Shown: positions 1-38,990 of the stretch, piece by piece
Layout of the letters: each line of letters starts with the position of its first letter
Position numbering within the stretch: the first letter of the stretch is position 1
Origin: Eledone cirrhosa
Lineage: Eukaryota
NCBI GenBank assembly: GCA_964016885.1
Contig: OZ024741.1
Coordinates: 120,218,001-120,282,000, forward strand
DNA: 64,000 bases
Reading direction: 5' to 3'
Translations under genes and position numbers: made by a program
Notes under the pieces: model-generated
The model's input: the letters and a program-made list of their open reading frames with translations, nothing else
Database searches by the model: none
What the model was told of the DNA's origin: nothing

Positions 1-155
1 CAAAAATTTCTTTGAAAAAAAATGGCTAATTCCCCTCTGCACGAAGCAGCTGAAAGCCTTCCTCACAAAATAACACCTCACACCGACACCACCATTGTAA
101 ATGTTACTACGTTTGCCAACACAAAAAAAATATAAGCAGTAGCAATATTTTAAAT

Positions 156-2015
156 TTGTCTCAGGCAGACATTCATTTCCCGCCATTACCAATGACTGCA
201 GGTGTTAAAGCCTCCACCACCACCACCACCGCGACAACCACCACCCCCACCACCACCGCGACAACAGAAACAAAAGAAGAAAAAAATAAATTAACTCGTG
301 ATGTCGAAATGAAATCAAGCAAAATGGACTCTTCCGCACCAAAGACGACTGACGTCACCACCACCACAACTGAAACTAAAATTAAGATTAACACAAATAA
401 CGATAGCAACAACAACAACAATGACATTATAAAACCGACCCTCAGTTTCGCCATCGTAGCAAAACAATTCGAAGCGTTCACGGTAACTCAAGAAGATTTA
501 GAAAATGCCAAACAAATGGTAAAGAAAGATGGGTACAGGGTCAGCCTCACCCCCCACCTAATAAAATGGAGAATCGGCGCCTGTGCACCGTGTCGTATAG
601 AACAATAAATGTAAAATCGCGCCGAGTGGAACGGGCATCCGAGTCCCAAATCCAAAAAGCTTTGGGACATGTGTGGGCAAGAAAAACCCACATCAGACGT
701 GGGCAAAAGTATGGAACCGTGGATGTGTTCTTTGAAACACCAGAGGAGGCTAGAGAACACTCCATGGCCCCATTAAAAAGTGACGACCTCACACTCGTCC
801 CAAGCTATTGTGGCCAGAGACTCGTAAAGATCAGGGTGACCCACGTTCCACCGGCCATCGAAATTCCCTGGCTAATAGCGGCTGTCCTCGCCGGCATCGA
901 AGCCAACACGAAAATAATAACAGTAGCAAAAGAAAAGCAGGAAAACTGGTCCGGATCTGGGATGGAGCTCCTGATCCAAGCGGACCAAAAAAGCATTGAG
1001 GAGATCCCAGAGGTAATAGACATCACTGACGGCAGCCACCTCACGGTAATTGTCGAGGGCAGAAGACCTAGGTGTGTCGTTTGTGGTGAAGGAACCCACC
1101 TAAGGGCTTTCTGCCCTCAGGCTAAAAGGTTGAGGCCACCTCTCCTACCCACCCCAGTGACACAACCATCAACACCACCAGTAGCAGAGATGGCAGCAAC
1201 AACTGTAGCAGCAACAACAGAAGCAACTATAACAGCAACAACCCCAGCAACAGTAGCAAAACCAACACCACTACCACCACCAGCAAAACCAACACCACCA
1301 CCACCCAACGCTTCAGAACTAGCACCAGCGCCTACACCATCCACCACACCACAACCAAAACTAACGGCTGTGGAGGATTTTCCACTCCCCGGCCTATCAC
1401 AACTGGAGACAGATTGTGACGACGAGGAGTGGGAAACGATATCCGGAAGAAGAAAAAGAAACCAAAAAAGAAAACATTCTCTTCCTTCCCCCTCCAAAAA
1501 CAAAATACAGAGGGAAACAAATAAACTAAGAAACAAAAAAGTTAGGACAGATATGCCACCATCCACACCAGCATCACCAACCCCATCAACCCAAACACCA
1601 ACACCATCACCATCATTAACTCCAACACCACCATCACCTACACCACAAAAGTCACCAAAATGCGAAACAGAAACAAAACCCACAACAAACGCAAACAAAA
1701 CAAAACAACCAAAACGATACACACTACACAGCATTAAATTTGAACAACAAGCAATTATTGCACTACATCCAACACAACACCAGCATCACAGAAAAAGACT
1801 ACACAACAACCCCAAAATTCACACCACCTCCACACATACAAATCACTCGCATCACACAGAAAACGTACATGACACTAAAACAAAAATTCCCCAAAGACAT
1901 CGGAGACTTCCGACAAGCACTCTCCAGGAGGATTTATAAGGACATCCTTCCTGAGGAGGCCACAAGCAGTGAAAAGGATGGAAAAACCGTCCTTCCCCTA
2001 CGAGAAGTAAGGTAA
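156..2015 (+). CDS. Tx1 ORF1 (nucleic-acid-binding protein), split by two apparent frameshifts
   Basis: ORFs 156-608, 566-1939 and 1740-2015 join into one protein homologous to the other copies; zinc knuckle CVVCGEGTHLRAFC; Thr/Pro-rich linkers; first shift lies in the C-run near 550. Confidence 0.8.
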
Positions 2016-2049
2016 GTGGTCTTTCCCATCTTTTCCACTCCTTTTCAAC

Positions 2050-5000
2050 ATGACCTCACTCAGAATAGGCAGCATAAATGCGCGTGGCTTGGGGTCGTCA
2101 TGGAAGCAGGGCCACCTGCTCAACGACCTCAGGTCACTAAACATAGATGTAGTGGCCATCAGCGAGACCAGAATCTCCGAAGCACAGGCTTTCGCACCGA
2201 TTTTCGGCGGCTACGATGTGTACGCATCTCCCAGCCGTCCGGGATCGGGGGGAGGAGTTGCTGTGCTTTTTCGGAGAGGTTTGGATCTTGCCATACGGGC
2301 CATCTTCCTGGACCCAGAAGGTAAGTTGGTGGTGCTGGACGTGACCAGCGGAGACGGGCAAGCTTTCAGGTTAGTGGCCGTCTATGCCCCGACAGGAGCA
2401 GGGCGGCCTGATTTCTTCCGGCGTCTGGAGACCTTTCTTGGAACGTCCCGCTCTTTAGTGTTAGTGGGCGACTGGAACGGGATCTTAGATGCACGCTGGG
2501 ATTGTGTGGGATTAGTGGATAGGGAAGGAGGGTGCAAGTGTCTCACCAACCTGCTCAGACGTTTTGAACTGTCTGACAGGTACCGAATGGATTTCCCGAA
2601 TGTACCAATGTGGACTTGTACAAATCGCATAGGGTCATCCAGATCATATCTAGATAGAGTATTTTGTAGGGAAATAGATAGGTCTAGCATAAGCTGTCCA
2701 CAATTCAAGATAGTCAGCTACACGGACCACAAATTCGTGATCTGTGTGCTTGACTTACATAGGCTTCATAGACGAGGACCCGGCTACTGGAAGTTAAACG
2801 CGTCCTTACCAGCGCGCAAGGCCTACAGAGACTGGATTAGCGAACTAGTTAAGCGGGCGTTGACGGGGGCCATCGTCAACAACAAGTGGTGGTTTGCTCT
2901 GAAAAGAGCAATTAGAATAGAGTCCATTAGGTTTAGTAAGACTTTAGCAATAGAGAAAAATAGAGCAGAGGGAGAACTAGTTAGAAAATTAGATGAGGCG
3001 CTTAGCAAAGGCATCGCGACCGACGTACTTGCGGCGAAATTGGCCCTTGACCAATTCTTCAATGCAAAGCACGAAGGCTGCGTTGTCAGAGCTAGGGTGC
3101 GTGCTCTCAGACACGAGGGGACGAAAGCCGTTCAATGGGCCCGAGTGGCGGAGGCGCGTCGTGGCAACAAAGCCACGATCCGGTCTTTGGTGGACCACGA
3201 CGGGCGCATGCTACTCGATCCCGGGCAAATGTGTGAAGCTTTTCAGCGACACTTCGCTCAACTGTTCGGGGGCAGTGGCGGGCCGGATCGAGGGATGGAC
3301 TTTAGTGTCTACCTCGACGGACTGCCGCGGCTTTCGGCCACTGAGGCGGAGTGTTGCGAAAAGCCGATAACAACCGCTGAAGTACGGGATGCAATGACTA
3401 GTTGCACAAGGGGTAAATCGCCTGGTTTGGATGGTCTGCCCTATGAACTTTACGTACAAATGCCAAACTTGTTCGGAGGCCTCTTGGCGGACGTCTACTG
3501 CAACTGGCAACAGAACGAGAGAATTCCCAGCTCTGTGAGCCGAGGAGCGGTGGCGCTGCTGAGAAAGGATCCGAACAAGGGGGATAACATAGATAATTTT
3601 AGGCCCATAACTCTACTAAACACAGAGTTCAAGATTTTGGCCAAGGTGCTAGCAAAGAGGTTGGCGCTTGTCGTTGGTGGTCTGGTGGGAGAGGCACAGA
3701 CATGCGCCATTCCCGACAGATCCATCCACGACAACCTCCACCTCATGCGATACATCGTAGAGAGGGTAGCTAGGGAACCTGGCACGGGTGGGTCTTTGAT
3801 CAATTTAGATCAGTCGAAAGCCTTCGATAGGGTCGACCATCGTTACCTAGCGGCAGTCCTGAGGGCGGCTGGCTTTGGGCCCGTCTTCAGAGGCTGGATC
3901 GCTGCCATACACAGCGACATCTGCTCTGTAGTGAGAGTGAACGGTCACCTTTCGGAACCGTTCAACATCATGCGCTCGGTCCGCCAAGGATGTCCCCTCT
4001 CGTCCCTATTGTACGTATTGACTCTCGAGCCATTACTGCACAAACTGGAGACGTTGAGGGGGGTCCCGCGCGAACTAGGATGCGGAAGATCCGTGTCAGC
4101 ATATGCGGACGATGTCACCGTAGTGGTGTCGAACGCCAAACACATCGAGGCGATCGGTACTACACTTAGAGAATACGAAGCGGTGACAGGAGCAATGATC
4201 AACCAAGAAAAGTCAGTGGGCCTGCAGCTCGGCACCTGGAGAGGCAGGTCCATGCCGTCCAACAGCGTCGTCGGGCGCTGGACGGACGGACCGGTTAAAT
4301 TGCTAGGGGTCTGGTTCGGTCCAGACCTCCAGACGGACAAAAACTGGGACGAGGTGACGAGCAGGGTGGCTTCTATCACCCAGAAATGGGCCGAGAGGAA
4401 GCTATCCCTGAAAGGTCGAGCGGAGGTGGCGAATGCGTACATCGCATCCGTCATCTACTACCGCCTGACCGTCGTACCTTGTCCTAAGCCCCGCCTGACT
4501 GCGCTGGAGCGTTTGCTCTTTCGCTTCTTGTGGAAGGGACGCGCTCCGATGGTCAGGCGGTCCATCTGCTGTCAACACCCGCTACGTGGAGGGCTGGGAA
4601 TGCCGTGGCTGATGATGCGCAGACACGCGCTCAGGCTACGACATCTCCACCTCTTCCTCGACGGTGATCAGGTGTGGTCGCCGTTTGCTAGACACGTTTT
4701 TCCCCAGCTCGTCTCCTTGACGGAGCTGCAGTCCTGGGTCAAGCGAAGACCGAGAGGGAGCGCTTGGAGACTGGAATGTCTTCAGGCGCTCACAACCCTC
4801 GACCAATCGGGCAATGTGATCGGTGGAAACTCCACCTTGGCGTTCTATAGGGGATTAGTGGAGGGGAAGAGCGACGACGTACTTGGAGAAACTCTGGGCG
4901 TCGACGAAAATCAACTAGCCAATCTCTTCGGAAGGACTTTCGGGCCGGGGCCTATGGACAACTTCCAGAAATCCCTGGCCTGGCAGTGCTACCGAGGAGC

Positions 5001-5469
5001 TTTGCCAGTTCGGGATAAACTCTACAGGCATGGAGGTGCCGTCAGCCGGGCATGTCCGAGATGCGCACAGGGCGACGAAACCGTCCTGCACGCACTCGTC
5101 CAGTGTCCGAGCATTACTGACTTGTGGGTTTATGTCGAACACCTGCTGTCACGTGTAGGACGGATCCAGCTATCAGCTGAGTCCATCGTGAGGATTGCCC
5201 CGCCCCCTTCCTTTAGCCGGGAAGGGCAGGCATTTTTTATCTGTCTGGTGGCCATGGCGAAAGAGATAGTATGGTGGACACGTTTGAAAGGGCTGAAGAC
5301 GAGCACTTACCTCTTCGGTGATGCCCTGATTAACTTTTTCAAATTTCATTTGAAAAGGAAAATCAGGGTAGAGAGGGAAGTGCTCTCTTCCCAGCATTTT
5401 GTTGAAAGATGGGTGAGAGAAGCAAGCATGGCCCGAGTGAATGGGCCTACTCTGAGTATGTGTCTGTAA
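2050..5469 (+). CDS. Tx1 ORF2: AP endonuclease + reverse transcriptase + C-terminal zinc finger, intact 1139 aa
   Basis: APE motifs SINARGL, ISET, GDWN, YLDR, TDH; RT motifs KSPGLDG, FRPITLLN, KAFDRVDH, RQGCPLS, YADD; finger CPRC..ETVLHALVQC. Confidence 0.96.
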   Translation: MTSLRIGSINARGLGSSWKQGHLLNDLRSLNIDVVAISETRISEAQAFAPIFGGYDVYASPSRPGSGGGVAVLFRRGLDLAIRAIFLDPEGKLVVLDVTSGDGQAFRLVAVYAPTGAGRPDFFRRLETFLGTSRSLVLVGDWNGILDARWDCVGLVDREGGCKCLTNLLRRFELSDRYRMDFPNVPMWTCTNRIGSSRSYLDRVFCREIDRSSISCPQFKIVSYTDHKFVICVLDLHRLHRRGPGYWKLNASLPARKAYRDWISELVKRALTGAIVNNKWWFALKRAIRIESIRFSKTLAIEKNRAEGELVRKLDEALSKGIATDVLAAKLALDQFFNAKHEGCVVRARVRALRHEGTKAVQWARVAEARRGNKATIRSLVDHDGRMLLDPGQMCEAFQRHFAQLFGGSGGPDRGMDFSVYLDGLPRLSATEAECCEKPITTAEVRDAMTSCTRGKSPGLDGLPYELYVQMPNLFGGLLADVYCNWQQNERIPSSVSRGAVALLRKDPNKGDNIDNFRPITLLNTEFKILAKVLAKRLALVVGGLVGEAQTCAIPDRSIHDNLHLMRYIVERVAREPGTGGSLINLDQSKAFDRVDHRYLAAVLRAAGFGPVFRGWIAAIHSDICSVVRVNGHLSEPFNIMRSVRQGCPLSSLLYVLTLEPLLHKLETLRGVPRELGCGRSVSAYADDVTVVVSNAKHIEAIGTTLREYEAVTGAMINQEKSVGLQLGTWRGRSMPSNSVVGRWTDGPVKLLGVWFGPDLQTDKNWDEVTSRVASITQKWAERKLSLKGRAEVANAYIASVIYYRLTVVPCPKPRLTALERLLFRFLWKGRAPMVRRSICCQHPLRGGLGMPWLMMRRHALRLRHLHLFLDGDQVWSPFARHVFPQLVSLTELQSWVKRRPRGSAWRLECLQALTTLDQSGNVIGGNSTLAFYRGLVEGKSDDVLGETLGVDENQLANLFGRTFGPGPMDNFQKSLAWQCYRGALPVRDKLYRHGGAVSRACPRCAQGDETVLHALVQCPSITDLWVYVEHLLSRVGRIQLSAESIVRIAPPPSFSREGQAFFICLVAMAKEIVWWTRLKGLKTSTYLFGDALINFFKFHLKRKIRVEREVLSSQHFVERWVREASMARVNGPTLSMCL

Positions 5470-5715
5470 ATTAAAGGTGGAAAACTGGGAGAGGGCACTT
5501 GCCCTGGTGGTCAGGGCCACTGTGGTCTTTTAATGGGCTTTCTCCACAAATGTCCCTCGGAAGTCTCCCCCCTATTGGGGAATTTTTTCTTTGTTATTTT
5601 ATTTCAACCTCCGTTTTTTTTACACGCAGAAATACCCATTTGTACCGTCCTGTATTGTCCTGTACTGTCCTTAATGTCTACTTTATGTAAACCCTTGTGG
5701 TTAATAAAGAAAACA

Positions 5716-5788
5716 TTATTATTATTATTATTATTATTGTTATTAATGTATGTGTGTGTGTATGTATGTGTGTATGTATATATGTATG

Positions 5789-6672: not shown

Positions 6673-6704
<32 letters not shown>

Positions 6705-6980
6705 TTTCATTTATTGGCCACAAGGGCCGACATATAGGGGACAATACCAAAGACTGGGACAGTGGGGGTTTTACAGAAAAATCGAGTAAACAATATAAAT
6801 AACAATAACAAAGTAACAATAACAAAGTAACAATAAAGTAACAATAAAATTACAAGAAAAAATTCCCCAATAGGGGGGATGACCACCTAGGGTTCACTCA
6901 GGTACCCCACCAGTCGTGAACGACCCGACGCTTCGAGAGCACCCTGGAAGGGCACCCCTCTCCTCCTCAAATGTACCTAC

Positions 6981-9900
6981 CTACAGCCGCATGACCAGAG
7001 TAGGACCACTCATACGGGCCATTCTCGCCACATTCACCCACCTTTCAGCAAATGTACTGGGGGGCAGCACTTCTCTCTCCACCCTCACCTGCCTTTCCAA
7101 GTGAAACTTGAAAATGTTGATGAGGGATTGGCCGAAGAGAAAAGTGTCTGTCTTCAGTCCTTTCAACCTCGTCCACCATACAACCTCTTTCGCTACTGAA
7201 GGCGGCGGGTCGATCTTCACTATGGACTCGGCCGATAGCCGGATCCGTTCTACACGCGACAACAGCTGTTCAACATAACTCCACAAGTCAGTAATGCACG
7301 GACACTGGACGAGTGCGTGCAGAACGGTTTCGTCGCTCTGCGCGCATCTCGGGCAGATCCGTCTGACAGCACTTCCGTGCCTGTAGAGTTTATCTCGAAC
7401 CGGCAGTGCCCCCCGGTAACACTGCCAAGCGAGGGATTTTTGGAAATTATCCATCGTCCCCGGCTCGAAAGTCCTCCGGAACAGACTGGTTAGTTCGACT
7501 TCGTTGACTCCCAGAGCCTCTCCGAATGCGTCGTCGTACTTGCCCACCACTAATCATCTATAGAACACGAGAGTGGAAGTTCCACTGACCACATTGCCCG
7601 CCTGGTAGAGGGCAGTAAGTGCCTGGAAACATTCCAGATGCCAGTCACCCAGTCTCGGTCTCTTCTTAGCCCAGGACTGCAGCTCAGTCAAAGAAACAAG
7701 CTGCGGAAAGGCCCGTCTGACAAACGGCGACCACACCTGTTCACCATTTAGGCAGAATATCTGGAGATGCCGCAACCTCAGCGCCTGCCTGCGCATCATT
7801 AGCCACGGCATGCCCAGCCCTCCACGTAGAGGGTGCTGGCAGCAGATGGACCGCCTCACCAGCGGAACCTGACCCCTCCACAAGAATTTGAAGAGGAGCC
7901 GCTCCAAGATGGCGAGGCGCGCACGGGGGCAAGGGACGACGGTCAGACGGTAGTAGATGACGGACGCGATGTACGCGTTCGCCACCTCCACCCGACCTTT
8001 CAGTGATAGCTTCATCCCAGCCCATTTCTGGGTGAGACTGGCTATCCTGCCCGTCACCTCGTCCCAATTCTTTTCCACCTGGAGGTGTGGCCCGAACCAA
8101 ACCCCTATCAAATTTACCGGTCCGTCCGTCCAGCGCCTAACGACGCTGTTGGGCGGTATGCACTTGCCTCTCCAGGTGCCAAGTTGCAAGCCCACCGACT
8201 TTTCCGGGTTAAGTTTTGCTCCCGTCAACCTTTCATATTCCTCCAATAAGTTGCCGACCACCTCGATTTTGGAGGTGTCCGACACCATCACGGTGATGTC
8301 GTCCGCATAAGCCGACACAGCCTTTCCGCGTCCCGGTTCGAGCGGGATGCCCTGCAACAGCTCCAGCTTCCGCAGTAAAGGCTCGAGAGTCAATACGTAC
8401 AGAAGGGAGGAGAGAGGGCACCCTTGACGAACCGATCGGGAGACCTGATACGGTTCCGAGAGGTGGCCATTAATTTTGACCATCGAGCAGGTGCCGCTGT
8501 GTATTGCGGCGATCCAGCTTCTGAAGACGAGGCCGAAGCCAGCCACCTTGAGGACAGTCTCCAGGTACCGATGGTCGACCCTATCGAATGCTTTCGATTG
8601 ATCTAAATTGATCAGAGCCCCACCGAAGCCAGGTTTACACCCTACCCTCTCTATGATGTATCGCATTATGTGGAGGTTGTCGTGTATGGACCTGGTTGGT
8701 ATTGCGCAAGTTTGCGCCTCCCCAACCAAATCCCCGACGACAAGCGCCAACCTCTTCGCTAACACCCTGGCCAAAATCTTAAACTCTGTGTTGAGCAGAG
8801 TTATGGGCCTGAAATTGTCTAATGCGTCCCTCTTGTTCTCGTCTTTCCTTATCAGCGTCACTACGCCCCGGCTCACAGAACTGGGAATACTCCCGTTTTG
8901 CTGCCAGTTGCAGTAGAGGGCTTCGAGGAGATTGGAGAACAAGTCTGGCATATTTACGTAAAGCTCGTAGGGCAGACCATCAAAACCGGGTGACTTGCGC
9001 CTCATGCAGCCGACAAGGGCATCCTGAATCTCGGCTGAAGTAATTGGCCTTTCGCAGCGCCCAGCGTCAGCCGTTGAGAGTTGCGGCAAGCCATCGAGGT
9101 AGGGACTGAAGTCCGCCACCATCTCTGACCCGCCACTTCCCCGAACAACCGAGCAAAATGTTGGCGAAAGGCCTCACACATCCTCTTGGAATCGCTCAGC
9201 TCGTGCCCGTCTCGGTCCGTCAAAGACCGAATCGTGGTTTTATTACCACGCTGCCCCTCTGCTACGCGGGCCCATCGAACAGCTTTGGTTCCCTTGTTTC
9301 TCAGAGCACGCGCCTTAGCTCTGACAATGCAACCTTCGTGTTTCGCATTGAAGAAATGGTCTAATGTCATTCTCGCCGCTAGCACGTCAGTTGCAATGCC
9401 ACTACCAATAGCCTCGTCTAACTTATCTACCAACTCCCCCTCCTTTCTATTTTTCTCTAACGCGACTTCTTTACTAAACCTTATCGACATTACTCTAATC
9501 TCTCTTTTGAGAGCCCCCCACCATCTATTGTTGACGACGCCCCCTGTCAACTTTTTCTTCACTAAATTGTTGACCTGGTCCCTGTAAGCCTTACATGCCG
9601 GAAATGACATGTTTAGCTTCCAGTAACCAGGTCCTAACCTACGCGTCTTATCTAGGTCGACCATACAGATCACAAACTTGTGATCTGAATAGGCGACCGT
9701 TTCAAAACGTGGACAGCTTACACTATTTCTGTCTATTTTCCTAATGAATATCCTGTCTATATACGATCTAGATGACCCTATGCGGTTAGCCCAGGTCCAC
9801 ACTGGCGCATTAGGGAAATCTAGTCGGTACCTGTCAGACAGTTGGAACTGGCTGATCAGGTCCTTGAGGCTTTTGCACGCCCCTCTCCTATCGGATACTC

Positions 9901-10360
9901 CCACACAGTCCCAGCGTGCGTCTAAGATCCCGTTCCAGTCCCCCGCTAACAGTAAAGGGCGAGACGTACCCAGAAAGGCTTCCAGGCGTCTAAAGAAGTC
10001 CGGCCGTCCTGCCCCAGTAGGAGCATAGACGGCCACCAGTCTAAAGGCACCACCTTTGTTATTGTTCACGTCCAGGACCACCAACTTCCCGTCCGGGTCC
10101 CGGAAGATCGACCTTACCTCGAGATCCAGGCCTTTCTTAAACAACACTGCAACCCCGCCTCCCATTCCCGGCCGGCTAACAGATGCAAAGATCTGATAGT
10201 CGTCGAAAATGGGGGCTAGTGCGTGCGTGTCGGAAATCCTGGTCTCGCTGACGACGATTACATCCATTTCTATAGACCTGGGGTCGTTGAGCAGGTGACC
10301 CTGCTTCCAGGACGATCTCAGGCCTCGAACATTTAAACATCCTACTCTTAATACGGCCAT
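6981..10360 (-). pseudogene. Tx1 ORF2 (APE-RT) with a frameshift near 9130 and a stop at 7554
   Basis: ORFs 9002-10360, 7554-9122 and 6981-7550 are collinear with the intact ORF2; YADD present. Confidence 0.9.
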
Positions 10361-10395
10361 GTTGGCAGGTTAAAAAGAGAGAGAGGAAGGTTTAC

Positions 10396-12370
10396 TTACC
10401 TTCCGGGCTCTTGTGAAGGTCGGGTTGGTCGACCTCCATAGTTGGTGGGGTTTCTTTTGGGAACCCCTTTAAAAGTCTTAAAGTGGGTTTTACGTTCGGG
10501 GTTCCCACGTCCCGAGGAAAGCTGTCTCATATTTCTTTGAATATATCGAGCGACATTCGCACCAGAACCAAATCTTCCGGCACGCGAAATGTGCTCGATT
10601 TAAAAATGTCCCCCTCTTTTTGTATATTTTCACTTCGTGCTACGAGGGCCATCAGTTCCTTGTTGGCCCTCCTGACGAGCACGAAGTTTTGTATGTTTTG
10701 TTGGTGTGATTTTATTTGTTTGCGTGGCTGTGGTGGTGATGGTTTTGGTGGTGTGTTTCGGTTGTATCTGTGTTTGTTGTGAGTGCGGTGTCTGTGGTTT
10801 CAGATGTTTGTGTGTATATTTGTTCTTGCGTCTGTTTGGGTTGTTTGCGTTTGGGGGATTCTGGTGATGGTGATGGTGGTGTTGATGTTGGTGTTATTGG
10901 AGAGATGTTTGCGTGGGTGGCGTCTGCATTTTTTATTGTGGGTGATTTTGTCCTTTGTTGAGTTTTATTTTTTTCTTATTGTGTTTCCTTTTTTGTATTT
11001 TGGGGGATTTTGGTTTTCCCTCATCTTCACTACTGGTAGATGAGGGGTCTGTGTCTGTAAGTGTGTCTGTATGTATGTTTATGGTTTTATTGGTGTGTGT
11101 ATTTATGGGGGGAGGGGGAATTTGACAGCTTTCCTCGTTTCCTCCCTGGGTGGTCAATGTTGGTGGTGGTCTTTCTATTGGTGTTGTTGTTGGTGGTTTT
11201 GCCGGTGCTGGTGTTGGTTGTGGTCCTCGCCCCGGCTTCGGCAGCAGTGGAGCCTTTCGACCCCTTGCCTCTTTCAGCAGTTGAGTGCAGAAGGCTCGCA
11301 AATGGGTTTTTCCCCACAAACAAAACACTGCGGCCTTTTGCCTTCGGTCATAATGTGAATGACCGTCCCATTCTGAAGGCGGATGTGGTCCGGGATTGTC
11401 TTCACATTCTCGGGCCTGATCTGGAGAACGATCTCCAGGTCAACCCCGGACCAGTCCTCTCTGGCCGTTCTGGTCACTTCTATAGGGACGGTATCCGTCC
11501 CCTCCACAATCACACATCCCAGAAGCCACCACATGTCAAGTCCTGGTAGGATTCTGGGAATGCGGAGACGGGCCGTTCTTTTTCCCATGTGGGAGGGGTA
11601 CATTATGACCTTGCTGGTTTTGCAAGGAGTCATAGCGTGTTTCATAGCGAGGGCTTCTGACTTTAACAACACCGAAATGGTGCCGTACTGTCTGCCCCTC
11701 TCTATGTACTGGGTGTCTTCTCTGATGCACCTCAGCGCGACTTCGACATCTTCTTGTGGGATTAAAGCTGCCCTTTTGGTTTGTGCTGAGATGCATGTAT
11801 AATGCACCGTTCTGCGCTCCACTGCCTCAATAGCTTCTACCGGGACAGTTAAGTTGGCCCAGGTTTGCTCTTTCTTGATGAGCTTCCATGCCTGGGCCAA
11901 CTTTTCATCTTTGTTTGAGAGGTCCATGTTGAAGCATGGCCTCTTTTTTGCTGCTGCCGCAGCGAAATTGTTCTTCTTGTTGTCGTTAGGGGTGTTGTTG
12001 TTGTTGTCGTTGTTCTTGTTGGTGTTGTTATCACTGTCGCTGTTATCATTGTTGTCTTTGGTGCCGCCGTTGTTCTCGGTGCAGTTGGTATTGTTGCTGT
12101 TGGTGTTGTCGCTATTTGTTTTCATGTTAGTGGTGTTGATATTGTTGTTGCATTTGTCATTTTTTTTGTTATCTGTATTTTCGTTGTCGCTGTTACTGTC
12201 ATTTTTTTCAAAATTAGAGTTCTCATTGGTATCATTGGTGTCTTTGTTTACCTTGTTTGTGGTGGTGTTTGTTGTATCAATTTCTGTTAATTTCGCCGTA
12301 GCGCTCCTCTCAACTTTTACGTCGTTGTCGCACGACAGCAGACATATCGCTGGGGGCGTGGCTCAGCCAT
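10396..12370 (-). pseudogene. Tx1 ORF1 of copy 2, frameshifted
   Basis: ATG at 12370 matches the copy-4 start (MAEP..); RGRQYGTISV; knuckle CFVCGxKTHLRAFC spans a frameshift. Confidence 0.8.
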
Positions 12371-12583
12371 GTTTTTTTGTTTGTGTTTTTTTCGATAATT
12401 TTTTTAAAATGTAACAGAGTTCAAATATTTGGGCCCAAAGGCCCAAATATTATTCTTTCCCCTTCACAGGGCAACGTCCAAGGGCTTGTATGCCTTACAC
12501 AACAACAAAAAATTCAATAAATAAGTTTTGACAGGTAAATAAATAAACTACGGAAGCGAGCAAAAAGACGTCCGTTCAGACTC

Positions 12584-12788
12584 AATAATAATAATAATAA
12601 TAATAATAATTGTTTCTACTTTTGGCACAAGGCCAGCAATTACCCAATGGATTACTGGTACTTTATTCTATCGACCCCGGAAGGATGAAAGGCAAAGTTA
12701 ACCTCGGCGGGATTTGAACTCAGATCATACAGGGAGGTAACTCTGTGCTTCAAAGCATGGCATCCGATCCTCTACCGATACTGCCAAT
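12584..12788 (-). mobile_element. tRNA-derived SINE with (ATT)n tail
   Basis: A box tggcagtatcgg, B box gagttcaaatccc, central ctttcatccttccggggtcgata, 3' end ggccttgtgccaaaagtagaaaca. Confidence 0.88.
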
Positions 12789-14205
12789 AATAATGATTTC
12801 ATTTATTGGCCACAAGGGCCGACATTTAGGGGACAATACAAAGACAGGGGCAGTAGGGTTTACAATATGGTCGAGTAAAATTGCTCAATGGCAAGACTAA
12901 TTTAACAATGAAGATATAAAAAATATAAAATAAACTATGCATAAATATAACAAAATAAATTCCCCTATAGGGGGTGGACGGCCCAGGGGTGAATCAGGTA
13001 CCCCACCAATCCTGAACCACCCTGCGCTTCTAGGGCACCCAGGGAGAGCACCCCTCTCCTCAAGTTAGCTAGCCTATAGGCGCATGATCAGAGTAGGCCC
13101 ATTCACACGGGCCATTCTCGCCACATTCATCCACCTTTTAGCAAATGTACTGGGGGGCAGCACTTCTCTCTCCACCCTCACCTTCCTTTCCAGGTGAAAC
13201 TTGAAGAAGTTGATGAGGGATTGGCCGAAGAGAAAAGTGTCTGTCTTCAGTCCTTTCAATCTGGTCCACCATATAACCTCTTTCGCAACGGCCACCATAC
13301 AGGAAAATTGACTGCTCTTCCTAACCTAAGGAAGGCGGCGGGTCGATCTTCATTATGGAATCGGCCGATAGCCGGATCCGTTCCACACGCGACAGTAGCT
13401 GTTCGACATAACTCCACAAGTCAGTAATGCACGGACATTGGACAAGTGCGTGCAGAACGGTTTCGTCGCTCTGTGCGCGTCTTGGGCAAGTCCGTCTGAC
13501 AGCACTACCGTGCCGGTAGAGTTTATCCCGAACCGGCAGTGCCCCCCCCCCCCCCCCCCCCCGGTAGCACTGCCAAGCGAGAGATTTCTGGAAATTGTCC
13601 ATCGTCCCCGGCTCGGAAGTCCTCCGGTACAGACTGGTCAGTTCGACTTCGTTGAGGCCCAAAGCTTCTCCGCGTGCGTCATCGCACTTGCCCACCACTA
13701 ATCCTCTATAGAAATCGAGAGTGGAAGTTCCACTGATCGCATTTCCCGCTTGGTATAGGGCAGTGAGTGCCTGGCAACATTCCAGGTGCCAGTCACCCAG
13801 TCTTGGTCTCTTGACCTAGGACTGCAGCTCAGTCAAAGAAACGAGCTGCGGAAAGGCCCGTCTGATAAACGGCTACCTCACCTGTTCACCGTTTAGGCAG
13901 AATATCTGGAGATGTCGCAACCTCACCGCATGTCTGCGCATCATTAGCCACGGCATTCCCAGCCCTCCGCGTAGAGGGTGAGGATGGCAGCAGATGGACC
14001 GCCTCACCAACGGAACTTGTCCATTCCACACCTCCGCGCGACCTTTCAGTGATAGCTTCCTCCCAGTCCATTTTTGGGTGAGACTGGCTGCCCTGCTCGT
14101 TACCTCGTCCAAATTTTTTACCGCCTGGAGGTCTGGTCAGAACCAAACCCCGAGAAACTTTACCGGTCCATCCGTCCAGCGCCCCACGAAGCTGTTGGAC
14201 GGAAT
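12789..14205 (-). mobile_element. Tx1 copy 3, 5'-truncated with an internal deletion
   Basis: ORF2 C-terminal fragments 13074-13298, 13321-13698 and 13873-14112; 3' UTR like copy 2. Confidence 0.88.
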
Positions 14206-14830
14206 ATGATGATGATGATGATAATGATGATGATGAGTCTTTATTGGCCACTAGAACCGAAAACAAGAGACAATACAAATGTGTAAGGAGAGTGAGGATT
14301 TACATGTAATTAATCGTTTAAAGAAAGAAAATTGGTAACAAAATAGCAATGAATTAAAACAACAAAAGTAGCCAATAGTGGGGAGAACCACTCAGCGGTC
14401 ATGTCGGAACCCCACAGATCCAAAGCAACCTTCAACACCAAGAGACCTTCTCATCTCTCTCTGCTTTTTTCAACCTTTTAACAAATATACTGAGGGGCAG
14501 CACTTCCCTCTCTACCCTCACCTTGAAAAAACGATTAGGGTTTGGCCGAAGAGTAATGTCTCCATTTTCAGTCCTTTCAGTCGCATCCACCAGACAGCCT
14601 CTTTTGCGACAGCTACCAAACAGAGGAAAACTGCCTGCCCTTCCCGACCAAAATAAGGTGTAGGAGTAATTTTCCTGATGAAGTCGGCCGATTGCCGGAT
14701 CCGTCCTACACGCGTGACAACTGTTGTTCGATACATGTCAGCAGTATATGGACGAGTAGGTGCAGAACGGCTTTATCTTTCAGTGCGCATTACAGAAAGG
14801 TCCGTCTGACAGCACTGCCGTGCCTGTTGA
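14206..14830 (-). mobile_element. Older degraded Tx1 3' fragment with (TCA)n tail
   Basis: GREGQAVFLCLVAVAKEAVWW homology; ends gtggccAATAAAgactcatcatc. Confidence 0.75.
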
Positions 14831-30125: not shown

Positions 30126-30343
30126 ATATTGGGTCTCTCTTGAGTGCTACTGGTAACATGTAACCCAGTACAACTTGTCGCATGGTCGGGTTGTCGGCGA
30201 TTAAACTGGCAACTCCGCCAAGTTTACTTGGGGAGGAGGGTGATTTGGGACACCCTACAGGACAAGAAACAAAACCTGACAAAGGGCGGAATAATTTATA
30301 AGAAGCAACGACCATCCAAAAATGTGTAAATATGTATATATAT

Positions 30344-30939
30344 ATTCCTGGGCCCAGAAGGTAAGTCGGTGGTGCTGGACATAACCGGCAGAGAAAGCAA
30401 TGCTTTCAGGCTAGTAGCCGTCTACGCCCCAACTGGGGCAGGACGGCCAGATTTCTTCAGACGTCTAGAGACCTTTCTTGGAACGTCCCGCTCTTTAGTG
30501 TTAATGGGCGACTGGAACGGTATCTTGGATGCACGCTGGGATTGTGTGGGGCTAGTGGATAGGGGAGGAGGGTGCAAGAGCCTCACCAACCTGCTCAGAC
30601 GTTTTGAACTGTCTGACAGGTATCGACTGGATCACCCGAATGTGCCAATGTGGACATGGACAAACCGCATCGGGTCATCCAGATCGTACCTCGATACGGT
30701 ATTCTACAGAGAACTAGATAAGGCTAGTATAAATTGTCCACAATTTAAAATAGTCGACTACACAGACCACAAATTTGTGATCTGTGAGATCGACATAGAC
30801 AGACTTCATAGACAAGGGCCCGGTACTGGAAGCTGAACGCGTCTTTCCCGGCGCGCAAAGCCTACAGAGACCGGATTAGTGTATTAGTTAAGCAGGCTTT
30901 GACGGGAACGGTCGTCAACAACAGGTGGTGGTTCGCCCT
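30344..30939 (+). mobile_element. Tx1 endonuclease fragment fused tail-to-tail with copy 4
   Basis: ORF 30369-30836 matches the ORF2 APE region; junction microhomology gccct. Confidence 0.85.
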
Positions 30940-33900
30940 CTCTGTGATGTATCGCATGAGATGGAGGTTGTCGTGGATGGATCTGTCCGGAATAGCGCAT
31001 GTCTACGCCTCTCCCACCAGATCACCGACGACAAACGCCAATCTCTTTGCTAACACCTTGGCCAAAATTATGGGCCTGAAGTTGTCTATAACGTTCCCCT
31101 TGTTCGGGTATTTTCTCAGCAGCGCCACCGCTCCCCGGCTCACAAAACTGGGAATGCTCCCGTTCTGCTGCCAGTTACAGTAGTCATCTGCCAAGAGGTC
31201 GCCGAACAAGTCTGGCATATACGCATAAATCTCGTAGGGCAGACCATCCAAACCTGGCGATTTACCCCTCGTACAGTCAAACATCGCTTCCCGTATTTCG
31301 CCTACTGTTATCGGCTTTTCGCAGCACTGCGCTACGGTCGTCGAGAGCCGCGGCAGTCCGTCGAGATATGCACCGAAGTCCATACTCCGATCCAGCCCGC
31401 CGCCGCTCCCGAATGATTGAACAAAGTGCTGTTGAAAAGCCGCACACATCTGCTCGGGTTCGAGCAATATGCACCCATTTTGATCAGGCAAAGACCGAAT
31501 TGTGGACTTGTTGCACGTCATGCCTCCACCACCCGGCCCCATTGAACGGCTTTCGTCCCCTCGTGTCTTAGAACACGCGCTCTAAGCATGTTGAGCAGGT
31601 TGTTGAGGCTTTTACACCCTTCTGCCCTGTCTACTAGCCCCACATAATCCCAGCATGCATCTAAGATACCGTTTCAGTCGCCCACTAACACTAAAGACCG
31701 GGGCGTTCCAAGAAAGGTCTCTAGACGTGTGAAGAAATCTAGCCGTCCTGCCCCTGTTGGGGCGTAGACGTCTACTATCGTATCAGCCGAAGATCGGTGC
31801 GAAGGCTCGTGCTTCGGAGATTCTGGTATCTCTGATGGCCATCACATCTATGTTTAGTGACCTGAGGTCGTTGAGCAGGTGACCCTGCTTCCAAGATGAC
31901 CCCAGGCCACGTACATTTATACTGCCGATTCTAAGTACGGCCATGTTGGATGAGAAACGGGGTAAGTGAGAAAGGATCACTTACCTTGATCGTGTGGTGA
32001 AGCGACAGTAGAACCGTCCCTTTGGTTGATCATGGGTGTTTCCAAGAGGATGTCGGTGTATATCCTCTTGGTAACCGACCCTCTGAAGTCTCCAACTGCG
32101 TTGGGGAATTTTTCTTTTGAATGTTCTATTTTGATTTCAATGATGCTTATGTTTTTCGGGAGAGTTCTTGGTGTTGGTGGGGTGTAGTACTTTTTTCTGT
32201 GATGTCTGTGTGCTGCTTTATATGTTGTAGGAGTTCTTTTTTTGCCATGTTTATGCCTGTGTACTTTTGGTGGGGAGGGGCAATTGTGTTGCTGTTTTCT
32301 TGTTGTTGCTGTTGGGTGTGTGTGTTTTGTTGTGTTTGCGATGTTGGTGTTTTTGGTGATGCTGGTGGTGGTGTGGTTGTTATTGGTGGTGATGCTTGTG
32401 GTGGTGATGGTGATGGTGGTGTTGCTGCAAGTCTCCTTGCAGCCTTTACTCATCTTTGTCTGCCTTCACTTATGGAGGGTGGAGCTAAGGGTTTTTTTCT
32501 TTTTTCTTTTTTCTTTTTTCTTTTTTCTTTTTTCTTTTTTCTTTTTTCTTTTTTGTGACAGACCGTTTGCCCCCCCCCCCCCCCCCCCCCCCCCGCCTCA
32601 CACTCCATGTCGGACCCCGCGGCATCTAGGAGGGGCATGAACTCCACTGCTGTTAGTGGTGGTTATGGAGCCCGCTCCGGCGATTTTGCCGCCGGTGTAG
32701 CTACTGCGACTGTTGGTGTTGCCGCCACTGATGCCACTGTTTTAGTTGTCCGTAGCCTTGGTATTGTGCCACGGACGATACCCTCCTATTCACCATGGAA
32801 GGGTCTTCTGCCTCTGTTGCCTGCCCTGCTCTTGGTAGCAGCGGATCCAGCGTCGGAAGGAGGGGGGGGCTCTTCTTGGCTGTGTTCTGCGGGCAGAAGG
32901 CCCTGCCGTGACCCTTCTGTCCACAGAGATAGCACTTTGGGCGCCTTCCCTCCACGCTTATAGGGAGCTGGAGTCCTTCTTCGAGGTCTATATCTGGGAT
33001 GGCCTCGATGCACTCTTGGTCTTCTGTATTAGCATTTGCATGCCTATTCCTGACCAGTCCTCTCTTCCCATTCTCTGTATTTGCAGTATGGTGGTCTTCT
33101 GCTCGATTCCAGCAAGTACAGACGCGGCTAGCCAAGGTATGGGCACGTCGGGTGGGGCATGGGTCACTTTGACCCTCACAATTTTCTGTCCACAGTAGGA
33201 GGGCACCAAGACTCTTTAGGGTTTCCAAAGAGTGAGACTTCGCCTCTTGGAGGGTGGTGAAAAGTACGTCTACTGTGGCGTACTTTTTGCCTCGGTGATG
33301 TGGGTTTTGCGCGCCCAGACGCACCCCAAGGCCTTTTGGATTTGAGCCTCCCTGGCTCTCTCTACTCCATGCGACATTTTGCTTACGATGCGGTAGGTCA
33401 CCGTGTGTAGCTGCTGATCTTTGAAGAAATCGGGTGGAGGTTTCAGGGAAACTCTATTTTCATTCCTTGTTACCATGGCTCTTGCGACTGCCATCTCCTC
33501 CGTGACTAGCACTGTCTCTATATTTCGGACCACACCTGCGAAAGAAGTGTCCCCTTTTTCAGCGGCATCATTATTGCTGCCGCTACTGCTGCTACTGGTC
33601 TTGTTGTTGGTGCTGTTGCTGTTGCTACTGCTACAAACGGTGTTGTTAGTGTTGTTGCTGTTATAACTGTTGTAGTTGGTTGTGTTTTTAGTGCCACCGC
33701 TGTTGTTGTTTTCGGTGCAATTTGTATTGTTGCTGTTGGTGTTGTCTTTGTGTATTTTCTTGTTAGTGGTGTTAATATCGTTGTTGCATTTGTTGTCATT
33801 TTTTCTGTGGTCTGTAATTTGGTTGACGCTGTTATTGTTGTAGTTGGTGTGGTAATTTTTTTTAATTTAGTGTTCTCAGTGTTGTTGTCTTTGTTCAGGT

Positions 33901-34222: not shown

Positions 34223-34307
34223 AATAATAATAATAATAATAATTGTTTCTACTCATGGCACAAGGCCAGCAATTACCCAGTACATTACTGGTACTTTATG
34301 TTATCGA
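34223..34307 (-). mobile_element. 3' half of a SINE split by Tx1 copy 5
   Basis: Ends at ttatcga, where the 38990-39115 half resumes. Confidence 0.8.
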
Positions 34308-34312
34308 ATATA

Positions 34313-34347
<35 letters not shown>

Positions 34348-37300
34348 TTGCTTTATTAACCACAAGGGTTTACATAAAGTAGACATTAAGGACAGTGCAG
34401 GACAATGCAGGACGGTACAAATGGGCATTTCTGCGTGTAAAAAACAAAAACAGAGGATGTAACAAAAATAACAATGAAAATAACAATGAAATATTCCCCA
34501 ATAGGGGGGAGACTTCGGAGGGACATTTGTGGAGAAAGTCCAGTAAAAAGCCACAATGACCCTGACCACCAAGGCAAGTGCCCTCTCCCAGTTTTCCACC
34601 TTTAATTTACAGATATATACTCAGAGTAGGCCCATTCACTCGGGCCATTCTTGCTTCTCTCACCCATCTTTCAACAAAATGCTGGGAAGAGAGCACTTCC
34701 CTCTCTACTCTGATTTTCCTTTTCAAATGAAATTTGAAAAAGTCAATCAGAGCATCACCGAAGAGATAAGTGCTCGTTTTCAGCCCTTTCAAACGTGTCC
34801 ACCATACTATCTCTTTCGCCATGGCCACCAGACAGATAAAAACTGCCTGCCCTTCCCGGCTAAAGTAGGAGGGCGGGGCAATCCTCACGATGGACTCAGA
34901 AGATAGCCGGATCCGTCCTAAACGCGACAGCAGGTGTTCGACATAAACCCACAAGTCAGCAATTTTCGGACACTGGACGAGTGCGTGCAGGACGGTTTCG
35001 TCGCCCTGTGCACATCTCGGACATGCCCGGCTGACGGCACCTCCATGCCTGTAGAGTTTATCCCGAACTGGCAAGGCTCCTCGGTAGCACTGCCAGGCCA
35101 GAGATTTCTGGAAGTTGTCCATAGGCCCTGGCCCGAAAGTTCTTCCGAAGAGATTGGCTAGTTGATTTTCGTCGACGCCTAGAGTTTCCCAAGTACATCG
35201 TCGCTCTTCCCCTCCACTAATCCTCTATAGAACGCCGAGGTGGAGTTTCCACCGATCACATTGCCCGATTGGTCGAGGGCTGTGAGCGCCTGAAGACATT
35301 CCAGTCTCCAGGCGCTCCCTCTCGGTCTTCGCTTGACCCAGGACTGTAGCTCCGTCAAGGAAACGAGCTGGGGAAATACGTGTCTAGCAAACGGCGACCA
35401 CACCTGATCACCGTCGAGGAAGAGGTGGAGATGTCGTAGCCTGAGCGCGTGCCTGCGCATCATCAGCCACGGCATGCCCAGCCCTCCACGTAGCGGGTGT
35501 TGACAACAGATGGACCGCCTAACCATCGGAGCGCGTCCCTTCCACAAAAAGCGAAAGAGCAAACGCTCCAGCGCAGTCAGGCGAGGCTTAGGACAAGGTA
35601 CGACGGTCAGGCGGTAGCAGATGACAGACGCGATGTACGCGTTAGCCACCTCCGCTCGACCTTTCAGGGATAGCTTCCTCTCCGCCCATTTCTGGGTGAG
35701 AGAAGCCACCCTGCTCGTCACCTCGTCACAGTTTTTGTCCGTCTGGAGGTCCGGACCGAACCAGACCCCTAGCAATTTAACCGGTCCGTCCGTCCAACGC
35801 CCGACGACGCTGTTGGACGGCATGGACCTGCCTCTCCAGGTGCCGAGCTGCAGGCCCACTGACTTTTCCTGGTTGATCATTGCTCCTGTCACCGCTTCGT
35901 ATTCTCTTAGTGTAGTGCCGATCGCCTCGATGTGTTTGGCGTTCGACACCACTACGGTGACATCGTCCGCATATGCTGACACGGATCTTCCGCATCCTAG
36001 TTCGCGCGGGACGCCCCTCAACGTCTCCAGTTTGTGCAGTAATGGCTCGAGAGTCAATACGTACAAGAGGGACGAGAGGGGACATCCTTGGCGGACCGAG
36101 CGAATGATGTTGAACGGTTCCGACAGGTGACCGTTCACTCTCACCACAGAGCAGATGTCGCTGTGCATAGCAGCGATCCAGCCTCTGAAGACGGGCCCAA
36201 AGCCAGCCGCCCTCAGGACTGCCGCTAGGTAACGATGGTCAACCCTATCGAAAGCTTTCGATGATCTAAATTGATCAAGGACCCACCCGTGCCAGGTTCC
36301 CTAGCTACCCTCTCTACGATGTATCGCATGAGGTGGAGGTTGTCGTGGATGGATCTGTCGGGAATGGCGCATGTCTGCGCCTCTCCCACCAGACCACCAA
36401 CGACAAGTGCCAAAGTCTTTGCTAGCACCTTGGCCAAAATCTTGAACTCTGTGTTTAGCAGAGTTATGGGCCGGAAATTACCTATGTTATCCCCCTTGTT
36501 CGGATCCTTTCTCAGCAGTGCCACCGCTCCTCGGCTCACAGAACTGGGAATTCTCCCGTTCTGTTGCCAGTTGTAGTAGACGTCCGCCAAGAGGCCTCCG
36601 AACAAGTCTGGCATCTGTACGTAAAGTTCATAGGGCAGACCATCCAAACCAGGCGATTTACCCCTTGTGCAGCCAGTCATTGCCTCCCTTACTTCAGCGG
36701 CTGTTATCGGCTTTTCGCAACACTTCGCCTCAGTGGCCGAGAGCCGCGGCAGTCCGTCGAGGTAGACACTAAAGTCCATCCCTCGACCCGGCCCACCGCT
36801 GCCCCCGAACGGCTGAGCGAAGTGTCGCTGAAAAGCTTCACACATTTGCCCGGGATCGAGTAGCATGCGCCCGTCGTGGTCCAACAAAGACCGGATCGTG
36901 GCTTAATTGCCACGACGCGCCTCCTCTACTCGGGCCCATTGAACGGCTTTCGTCCCCTCGTGTCTGAGAGCACGCACCCTAGCTCTGACAACGCAGCCTT
37001 CGTGCTTTGCATTGAAAAATTGGTCAAGGGCCAATTTCGCCGCAAGTACGTCGGTCGTGATGCCTTTGCTAAGCGCCTCATCTAATTTTCTAACTAATTC
37101 TCCCTCTGCTCTAATTTTTTCTATTGCTAAAGCCTTACTAAACCTAATGGACTCTATTCTAATTGCTCTTTTCAGAGCAAACCACCACTTGTTGTTGACG
37201 ATGGCCCCCGTCAACGCCCGCTTAACTAGTTCGCTAATCTGGTCACTGTAGGCCTTGCGCGCTGGTAAGGACGCGTTTAGCTTCCAGTAGCCGGGTCCTC

Positions 37301-38990
37301 GTCTATGAAGCCTATCTACGTCAAGCACACAGATCACGAATTTGTGGTCTGTGTAGCTGGCTATCTTGAATTGTGGACAGCCTATGCTAGACCTATCTAT
37401 TTCCCTACAAAATTCTATATCTAGATATGATCTGGATGACCCTATGCGATTTGTCCAAGTCCACATTGGCACATTCGGGAAATCCAATCAGTACCTGTCA
37501 GACAGTTCAAAACGCCTGAGCAGGTTGGTGAGGCTCTTGCACCCTCCACCCCTATCCACTAATCCCACACAGTCCCAGCGTGCATCTAAGATCCCGTTCC
37601 AGTCGCCCACTAACACTAAAGAGCGGGACGTTCCAAGAAAGGTCTCCAGACGCCGGAAGAAATCAGGCCGCCCTGCTCCTGTCGGGGCATAGACGGCCAC
37701 TAGCCTGAAATCTTGCCCGTCTCCGCTGGCCACGTCCAGCACCACCAACTTACCCTCTGGGTCCAGGAAGATTGCCCGTATGGCGAGATCCAAACCTCTC
37801 CGTAAAAGCACAGCAACTCCTTCCCCCGATTCTGGACGGCTGGGAGATGCGTACACATCGTAGCCGCCGAAGATCGGTGCGAAGGCCCGTGCTTCGGAGA
37901 TTCTGGTCTCGCTGATGGCCACTACATCTATGTTTAGTGACCTGAGGTCGTTGAGCAGGTGACCCTGCTTCCATGACGACCCCAAGCCACGCGCATTTAT
38001 GCTGCCTATTCTGAGTGAGGTCATGTTTAAAATAGAGTGGAAAAGATGGGAAAGACCACTTACCGTACTTTTGGTAGAGGAGGGATGGTTTTTACATCCC
38101 TTTTCACTTGATCGTCTGGTGAAGGGACCGTTGAATCGTCCCTTCGGCTGGTCATCGGCTCTTCTATGAGTATGTCCGAATATACTCTTCGGTTGATAGT
38201 TCCTCCTAGGTCTCTGAAATCACCAACTGCTTTGGGGAATTTCGTTTTAATGTTTGTGTATTGTTTCTGTGCTATTTTTAGCAGTCTTATGTTAGTTGGC
38301 GTTTTGATTGGTGCTGGTATTATGTAGTCGTGTTGTGAAATGTCTGTGTTCAATTATGTAAGTCATTAGTTTCTTGTTGTGTGTATTTATTGCCGTGCAT
38401 TTGTTTTTCTGGGGGTGGGGTGTGGTTCTGCTATTTTCTTGTCGTTGTTGCTGGCTGTGTGTGTTTTGTTGTTGTGTTTGCGATGTTGGTGCTTGTGGTG
38501 GTGGTGTTGAAGGTGTTGTTGGCGGTGGGGTTGTCGCCGGTGGTGATGGTGGTGCTAGTGTGGGTGGTGATGGTGTTGGTGGTGTTGCTGCTGTGAGTCT
38601 CTTTGCAGTAGACTCTACCCTTTTTTCATTTCTTTCCTCCCTTTTCAAAGGCGACGATGCGCTGCTTCTGCGTTTGTGCCTTCTTACGACCTTTTGCCTT
38701 CCCTCTCCCACCTCACACTCCATGTCTGATTCTGTGAGGTCGGGGAGGGCTACCAGCTCCACTCGTTCACTTGTTGTTGTTGGTGATGTTTGCACTGGAG
38801 TCTCTGTTGCAGCTGCATTTGGTATTGCTGTTGTTGTTGTTAATACTTCCACTGTTGCTGCTGTTTTTGATTTCCGTGGCGTGGGTTTGGGTGCCACGGA
38901 CCTATCGTTCCTGGTTGCCGGTTTCGGAAGGAGGGGGGTTTTCTTCTTTCTCGGGGTCTTCTCGTTGCAGAAGGCCCTGAGGTGAGTCTT
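34308..38990 (-). mobile_element. Tx1 copy 5, 5'-truncated within ORF1; ORF2 (34607-38024) close to copy 1 but with stops and frameshifts
   Basis: ORFs 37488-38024, 36903-37487, 36225-36887, 35179-36168 and 34607-35122 are collinear with ORF2; (ATT)n tail. Confidence 0.92.

Follow-up and report, generated by a model that had tools for sequence, protein, structure and literature searches.

A conserved splice donor-like motif between ORF1 and ORF2 in a Tx1-like LINE family that targets microsatellites

In the Arabidopsis element EVD, U1 at a splice donor both starts the splice and is proposed to repress premature termination of the full-length RNA (PMC5580714), and in human L1, a long interspersed element (LINE), the donors of the spliced copies termed SpIREs lie in the 5' untranslated region (UTR), splicing inhibits the element, and spliced copies make up about 2% of full-length L1s (PMC5860796). 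Among LINEs of the Tx1 clade, target preference is often for microsatellites (more than 20% of flanks), and two microsatellite-targeting members, Kibi and Koshi, have two open reading frames (ORFs), with a CCHC knuckle in ORF1 and an apurinic/apyrimidinic endonuclease (APE), reverse transcriptase (RT) and zinc finger in ORF2 (PMC4494074). The LINE family studied here shares this layout and likewise inserts into microsatellites, although its targets are (ATT)n and (TATC)n rather than the (TC)n or (TTC)n of Kibi and Koshi (PMC4494074). We encountered it in a 64,000-nucleotide (nt) stretch of Eledone cirrhosa DNA (contig OZ024741.1, positions 120,218,001 to 120,282,000 of the forward strand), the whole of which is called the window below. 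An earlier note on the window had reported a consensus splice donor, GTAAGT, at the ORF1/ORF2 boundary of four copies and had proposed that ORF2 might be removed as an intron running from 2012 to 5629, with U1 small nuclear ribonucleoprotein (snRNP) binding as an alternative.

The donor motif at the ORF boundary

Copy 1 (subfamily A; 1..5714, plus strand) is a near full-length LINE that sits within an (ATT)n tract and whose 5' end lies about 190 nt upstream of the window start. Its ORF1 (22..2015, plus strand) is frameshifted, has an uncertain start, a low-complexity tail and one CCHC knuckle, and ends in a TAA stop at 2013-2015; its ORF2 (2050..5469, plus strand) is intact, at 1139 amino acids (aa). 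The donor AAG/GTAAGT (2009..2017, GT at 2012-2013, plus strand; the slash marks the splice point) falls in phase 2 of the last ORF1 codon, ranks first among the 287 sense GT sites of the copy for pairing with host U1, and is followed by an inter-ORF spacer (2018..2049, plus strand) that is 0.81 pyrimidine, contains no AG and ends in AAC before the ORF2 ATG. Corresponding donors lie on the minus strand at 10394..10402 in copy 2 (subfamily E, phase 1; ORF2 start at 10360), at 31979..31987 in copy 3 (subfamily D, phase 1; a copy with a rearranged ORF2 and a missing 3' end) and, as ACG/GT, at 38058..38066 in copy 5 (subfamily A2, phase 2; ORF2 start at 38024).

The GTAAGT hexamers at 2012-2017 (plus strand) and at 10394-10399, 31979-31984 and 38058-38063 (minus strand) are all present with the flanks given in the earlier note. 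Its claim that the motif sits on the ORF1 stop stands for copies 1 and 5, in which the TAA lies within the motif, but not for copies 2 and 3, in which the stop overlaps only the last T and the homologous ORF1 frame places the donor in phase 1. The frame of copies 1 and 5 is fixed by another copy in the genome, L045, because its intact 634-aa ORF1 ends at the TAA inside the motif. In subfamily H, ORF1 continues through the donor and stops 36 nt later, which contradicts the idea of a motif always on the stop. Further, the four window copies share common ancestry and are not independent trials; the support lies instead in a survey of subfamilies.

The genome searched is a 3.0-Gb animal assembly, in which a pattern for the ORF2 N terminus gave 10,280 matches and the reversed control none, for a family of about 10,000 copies. 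We surveyed 40 copies from the first 100 matches listed, picked by ORF2 sequence type rather than by donor, together with L031 and L045. The donor was present in 41 of these 42 junctions (AG/GTAAGT in 30, AG/GTAGGT in 8, and GG/GTAAGT, CG/GTAAGT and AG/GTAATT in 1 each), 27 to 52 nt from the ORF2 start, and the motif recurred in 24 of 26 additional A-, D- and E-type junctions; identity between deep lineages at four-fold sites is about 50 to 55%. Phases were assigned by longest open frame and protein similarity, many of the copies being broken. Subfamilies A, I, B, C, F and G carry the donor in phase 2, D and E in phase 1 and H in phase 0, so that the phase must have changed three times or more on the tree, where B3 has a long and uncertain branch and I is represented by one copy. 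Since the motif is kept in three ORF1 phases, its conservation is not a stop-codon effect.

Seven motif positions (-2 to +6 without +4) are identical in 15 or 16 of 16 representatives, whereas none of 46 flanking positions reaches 15 of 16, in an alignment that is anchored on the motif and so favours its columns. In the commonest variant (8 of 42), G replaces A at +4, which retains a wobble pair with U1. Near-invariant four-fold sites number 100 of 386; at the four-fold rate, the chance of such conservation would be about 0.005 for four unconstrained positions and about 0.0003 for six, rough figures for positions chosen post hoc, with the U1 match left uncounted. No hotspot of synonymous constraint was found in ORF2, where the best window scored 7 of 10 and 944 of 2,000 permutations reached 7.

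The junction site forms 7 to 9 Watson-Crick pairs of 11 with host U1. When the 159 to 333 sense GT sites of each representative were ranked against the host's own U1, it was the best in 12 of 16 and among the top three in 15 of 16, standing sixth in subfamily I. Over the 8-nt core, U1 pairs 8 nt by Watson-Crick rules and host 18S ribosomal RNA (rRNA) at most 6. (The U1 small nuclear RNA genes form tandem arrays with a 2.67-kb period at G000:C1128 and C2:180.97-181.00 Mb, and the 18S rRNA matches extend over about 2,870 nt; an 18S rRNA of 2.87 kb, together with the dense microsatellites, would suit a coleoid cephalopod.) Pairing energies range from -10.3 to -12.3 kcal/mol in 15 of 16 family representatives, whereas none of 42 junctions from distant Tx1/L1-like elements reaches -10 kcal/mol at any site within 100 nt (best, -8.3). 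These outgroups derive from 80 metagenome loci with a related RT, of which 45 had an endonuclease start and 42 (39 distinct) enough upstream DNA; their RT identity is 31 to 46%, and one of them, L265, contains GTAAGT. Their lack of a comparable site argues that the motif is not general to Tx1/L1-like elements. Among other searches for relatives, a first metagenome scan gave no match, a generic endonuclease pattern gave 126 matches with no relative among the 30 inspected, and two proteins of 40%-identical families yielded no close sister family (matches at about 50% identity or less), every junction examined among those matches belonging to the same family.

These comparisons indicate that the donor is real, selected, under constraint at the nucleotide level, and specific to this lineage. 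The expectation that it would be conserved in other subfamilies is borne out and exceeded, in that the motif spans three phases, is the best U1 site and is absent from distant relatives.

Donor-like sites also occur near the 5' end. A second one, TCG/GTAAGT (-9.3 kcal/mol), lies in the 5' UTR of B and C, and H has a weaker one in its 5' UTR (loci L092, L097, L120 and L125, about 30 to 50 nt from the 5' end); such sites are weaker than the junction donor and not common to all subfamilies, in a comparison in which 5' ends were mislocated or missing at many loci.

Candidate acceptors, spliced copies and competing readings

Both 3' UTR acceptors of the proposed intron exist, as CACGCAG in copy 1 (5610..5629, plus strand) and in copy 5 (34431..34450, minus strand), and the 20-residue tail predicted for the 2012-5629 splice was verified as written. 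The acceptor described as absent in copy 3 is uninformative, because the 3' end of that copy was lost by rearrangement. The 2012-5629 intron finds no support as a family feature: its acceptor is confined to A, A2 and I, which make up 3 of 14 representatives, and exact-pattern searches turned up no precise deletion to set against the 4,062 A-type copies whose donor is intact. The ORF2 stop is YTAG in 11 of 14 representatives, mostly followed by G, with a pyrimidine fraction of 0.65 to 0.76 upstream of the TAG in E3, F, G, C, B3 and H; TAA takes its place in A and A2, and GAG in a B2 copy. Thus A and A2 lack the ORF2-stop TAG but carry CACGCAG, and this complementarity is the best support for the splicing idea. 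No acceptor at or beyond the ORF2 stop is common to all lineages, and the predicted new ORF1 tails run from 1 to 101 aa, the longest at least matching the 3' UTR in length. In the U-rich 3' UTR, AG was observed 18 times against 43 expected (GA, 37), a scarcity that is suggestive, as counted over related sequences.

A short 3' UTR hairpin (5569..5580, plus strand), kept with variation across subfamilies and followed by a U-rich tract, would be lost in the 2012-5629 splice; together with that tract, it is a candidate for the 3' recognition signal of the ORF2 protein (ORF2p). Downstream lie AATAAA and the (ATT)n tail or target (5703..5740, plus strand), and an Rfam search gave only a microsatellite match below the Rfam cut-off. 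Inside ORF2, a candidate acceptor CTCAG/G (2125..2135, AG at 2131-2132, plus strand) is invariant in 13 of 13, which may be due to coding constraint; another (2445..2464, plus strand) has YAG in 13 of 13, lies within LV/AGDWN codons and has the top pyrimidine content among 85 conserved AG columns. Both internal conserved AGs (2132 and 2464) appear explainable by coding.

Retrocopies of spliced RNA were sought with patterns in which the end of ORF1 is followed by sequence other than the donor and spacer, an exact-match and partial search run for A, B/C/G, H, F, E and D. The A patterns cover all four candidate acceptors, arbitrary acceptors being caught only in part, and the denominators, for A and H only, are 4,062 A-type copies with an intact donor and 579 H-type copies. 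No retrocopy with a GT-AG deletion was found in these exact-pattern searches, nor, among A-type copies, one with the precise 2012-5629 deletion that the earlier note had suggested seeking. All candidates were rejected. An acceptor-side pattern gave 8, all unspliced; this pattern covers a minor UTR variant with 147 unspliced matches. In A, 3 candidates were point changes, and 10 of 12 further ones were local changes; L136 and L141 carry deletions that start at the donor position and end in CG and GG, with microhomology, and are not GT-AG. Of the 7 candidates from a third A pattern, 5 were local changes and 1 was an inversion; the remaining one, L319, is some 22 nt of ORF1 end patched into another repeat rather than a spliced copy. 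For B/C/G, the first pattern gave 1 candidate, inspected and rejected, and the second gave 7, of which 6 were local changes and one, L324, has a deletion beginning 3 nt past the donor. The 3 candidates in E were 1-nt deletions as listed (1 inspected), the 3 in D were all unspliced, and the H and F patterns returned none. In contig alignments, none of the 15 joints listed in each of two sets began at 2011, with 1,152 and 56 more joints beyond those listed, which is no evidence either way; the single run presumed to be RNA reached 14 of 30 bins, the junction not among them. The L319 patch is a curiosity in itself: about 22 nt ending at the donor (L329:4270-4295) replaces a short stretch in an unrelated, RTE-like-looking repeat, as a templated patch with microhomology.

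An RNA without ORF2 would be a poor template, given cis preference and the loss of the hairpin, so the lack of spliced retrocopies is only moderate evidence against abundant spliced RNA. It counts more strongly against a replicating short-intron fusion.

A donor that has neither a fixed partner nor spliced progeny is most simply read as a U1 docking site, and this alternative fits the data better than the 2012-5629 intron. We therefore hypothesize, tentatively and at a confidence somewhat short of even, that the donor serves as a splicing-independent docking site that aids the survival of full-length RNA, with EVD as the precedent (PMC5580714). U1 snRNP would dock at the boundary donor, which would mostly be left unspliced, perhaps assisted by the U/C-rich spacer behind it, and docked U1 would guard the growing bicistronic transcript against termination ahead of ORF2; the benefit would be more full-length RNA. 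The boundary may have been the site of choice as the only internal stretch nearly free of coding constraint, ORF2 would be translated from unspliced RNA by termination-reinitiation, and any splicing that happens now and then, to acceptors particular to a lineage (5629 in A, the ORF2-stop TAG in others), would be incidental.

Several observations speak against U1 docking. Its support comes from DNA sequence, with U1 binding predicted from pairing. Canonical poly(A) hexamers number 0 to 2 in ORF2, neither depleted nor enriched relative to codon shuffles, which leaves no obvious signal for U1 to suppress; among canonical hexamers, one place near +1145 is common to 5 of 13, with none in A, and no EVD-like internal poly(A) site coupled to a splice was seen in ORF2. 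ORF1 does contain hexamers; in 12 of 13, the nearest is 132 to 586 nt upstream, and none is near the U-rich spacer. Leaving a strong donor unused can lead to nuclear retention, which would be costly for a LINE. An ORF1-only splice would need its donor precisely here, where ORF1 ends, and the two A lineages without YTAG at the ORF2 stop, in contrast to the 11 of 14 with it, have the 5629 acceptor. U1 docking and ORF1-only splicing are, however, not mutually exclusive.

The most serious rival is regulated splicing that would remove ORF2 to leave an ORF1-only mRNA, with turnover of the acceptor, which we consider unlikely but not negligible. Whatever the phase, no more than 12 codons separate the donor from the end of ORF1, and the TAG stops with their pyrimidine-rich upstream stretches in six lineages, complemented by CACGCAG in A and A2, would suit such a scheme. 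Yet there is no single conserved acceptor, the tails vary as described, and a 5629 splice would also delete the 3' hairpin. In LINEs, an excess of ORF1 protein already arises from poor reinitiation, and this protein acts mainly in cis. The intron of Drosophila copia, which spans all of POL, offers a precedent (PMC5580714), but no spliced retrocopy stands against the 4,062 A-type and 579 H-type copies, compared with about 2% in human L1 (PMC5860796); because human spliced L1 copies keep ORF2, cis preference weakens that comparison.

Subfamily H gives some weight to another rival, a signal that promotes ORF2 reinitiation by translation coupling or protein binding and is merely donor-like. In 8 of 8 distinct H loci (including L105, L106, L107, L115, L116 and L124), the ORF2 start position is occupied by an ATA that overlaps the ORF1 TAG. 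L105 keeps both frames open (613 and 1145 codons), the 613-codon ORF1 frame running through the motif to the TAG, and the first Met of ORF2 comes 34 codons in, beyond the first endonuclease motif, which suggests that H ORF2p needs a non-AUG restart or a -1 frameshift. This arrangement would fit translation from unspliced RNA, for which the termination-reinitiation used by SART1 and L1 provides precedents; those elements likewise have a short spacer or a stop/start overlap between ORF1 and ORF2, although with ATG in place of the ATA of H, and a donor-like motif goes unmentioned for them in the passages drawn on (PMC5972666). The motif also stays 27 to 52 nt from the ORF2 start even though the ORF1 phase varies. 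Against a translation signal, the conserved block mirrors the U1 5' end position by position with sharp edges, 18S complementarity does not exceed 6 nt, and distant relatives lack the motif even where their spacers are alike (pyrimidine-rich in 9 of 42), so that we regard such a signal as distinctly unlikely. Shared ancestry plus stop-codon constraint, without any function of the motif itself, seems less probable still: all carriers belong to one family in one genome, with about three deep lineages, invariant runs of 9 to 12 nt occur elsewhere in ORF2, and TA(A/G) is the stop in phase-2 lineages, but the motif survives phase changes, no flanking position is equally conserved, and the rough chance estimates given above are low. 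A short intron fusing ORF1 in frame to ORF2, with an acceptor at Leu4-Arg5 (about 2062) or at 2132, is very improbable. Both joins are in frame in phase-2 lineages, the Arg5 AG is present in 100 of 100 among the matches listed, and the 2132 site is invariant in 13 of 13; D, E and H, however, could not make either join in frame, the 2062 site reads AAG or GAG in most lineages and would leave an intron of merely 40 to 65 nt or so, and the 2132 acceptor would remove the first endonuclease motif. Such an RNA could keep RT in cis, yet no copy of it was found in A.

Family assignment and other features of the window

ORF2 of copy 1 encodes AP-endonuclease, reverse transcriptase and zf-RVT domains (Pfam PF03372, PF00078 and PF13966), and the CCHC motif of its C-terminal zinc finger is matched in L104, L105 and L111. 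The ORF1 knuckle CX2CX4HX4C is present in all four ORF1s scanned for it, and Pfam returned neither an RRM nor a knuckle match in the two window ORF1 pieces scanned. Membership in the Tx1 clade fits by structure and microsatellite targeting, the features on which assignment is based here (PMC4494074, PMC5203782), rather than by an RT tree; a named Tx1 reference was absent among 50 homologues, their cluster members and the atlas matches.

An (ATT)n tract precedes all 17 A copies with a locatable 5' end (20 A copies examined), and the 3' ends of B, C, F, G and H copies are TATC-type repeats. One family thus uses two targets, (ATT)n in A, D, E and I and TATC-type repeats in B, C, F, G and H, and the switch coincides with the deepest split of the tree (3' ends of L092-L131). 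Copies of different subfamilies stand in head-to-tail arrays with a spacing of about 5.8 to 6 kb (G000:C1:26.57-26.59 Mb and 29.95-29.97 Mb; window 6690-14830 and 30300-38700), apparently having inserted into one another's microsatellite tails. In L117, an E-type junction leads into the ORF2 end and 3' UTR of the A type, which makes it a mosaic or nested copy.

Elsewhere in the window, two long ORFs of 329 and 211 aa (54993-56977, plus strand), the first cysteine-rich without a Pfam match and the second matching Pfam 7tm_2, are probably one gene for an adhesion/secretin-type G protein-coupled receptor. Other retroelement remains, with RT-bearing ORFs, lie at 41617-43626, 52251-54494 and 63371-63946 (plus strand) and at 44000-46480 (minus strand); by their motifs, the first two look like restriction-endonuclease LINEs, the third like a Penelope-like GIY-YIG end and the last RTE-like.

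Comparison with described systems

Full-text searches, which excluded subscription journals and Repbase reports, returned no report of a donor at the ORF1/ORF2 boundary of a Tx1 element or any LINE, and the novelty of such a donor is therefore provisional. If true, U1 protection of genomic RNA or a subgenomic ORF1 mRNA would either way be new for elements without long terminal repeats (LTRs), as far as these searches show. The three-phase series and the ATG-less H subfamily offer natural variants for the study of bicistronic LINE RNA processing and translation, and the thousands of strong donors dispersed by the family may act as exon traps in host genes.

Human L1, with its SpIREs, likewise shows LINE RNA carrying splice signals (PMC5860796). 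Here, by contrast, the donor lies at the ORF boundary and is conserved across lineages, and no spliced copy was found. As LINEs need unspliced full-length RNA and splicing is inhibitory in human L1, the retention of the strongest donor through frame changes is unexpected. The Ty1/Copia element EVD has a conserved U1-binding donor between structural protein and enzymes, as does the family described here, but it is a single-ORF LTR element in which a roughly 300-nt intron has been demonstrated, together with a conserved acceptor and an internal poly(A) site (PMC5580714). In the present LINE, known from its DNA, neither a conserved acceptor nor an EVD-like internal poly(A) site was seen. A LINE that treats the whole of ORF2 as an alternative intron would have reinvented the copia strategy in a non-LTR element, which we think rather unlikely. 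In Drosophila copia, the donor stands at the end of the structural gene, as it does here, but splicing is demonstrated for copia (PMC5580714) and hypothetical for the present LINE; the possible enzyme-ORF intron of about 3.5 kb in this LINE would end near the natural 3' end, in an element that already has a stop between its ORFs.

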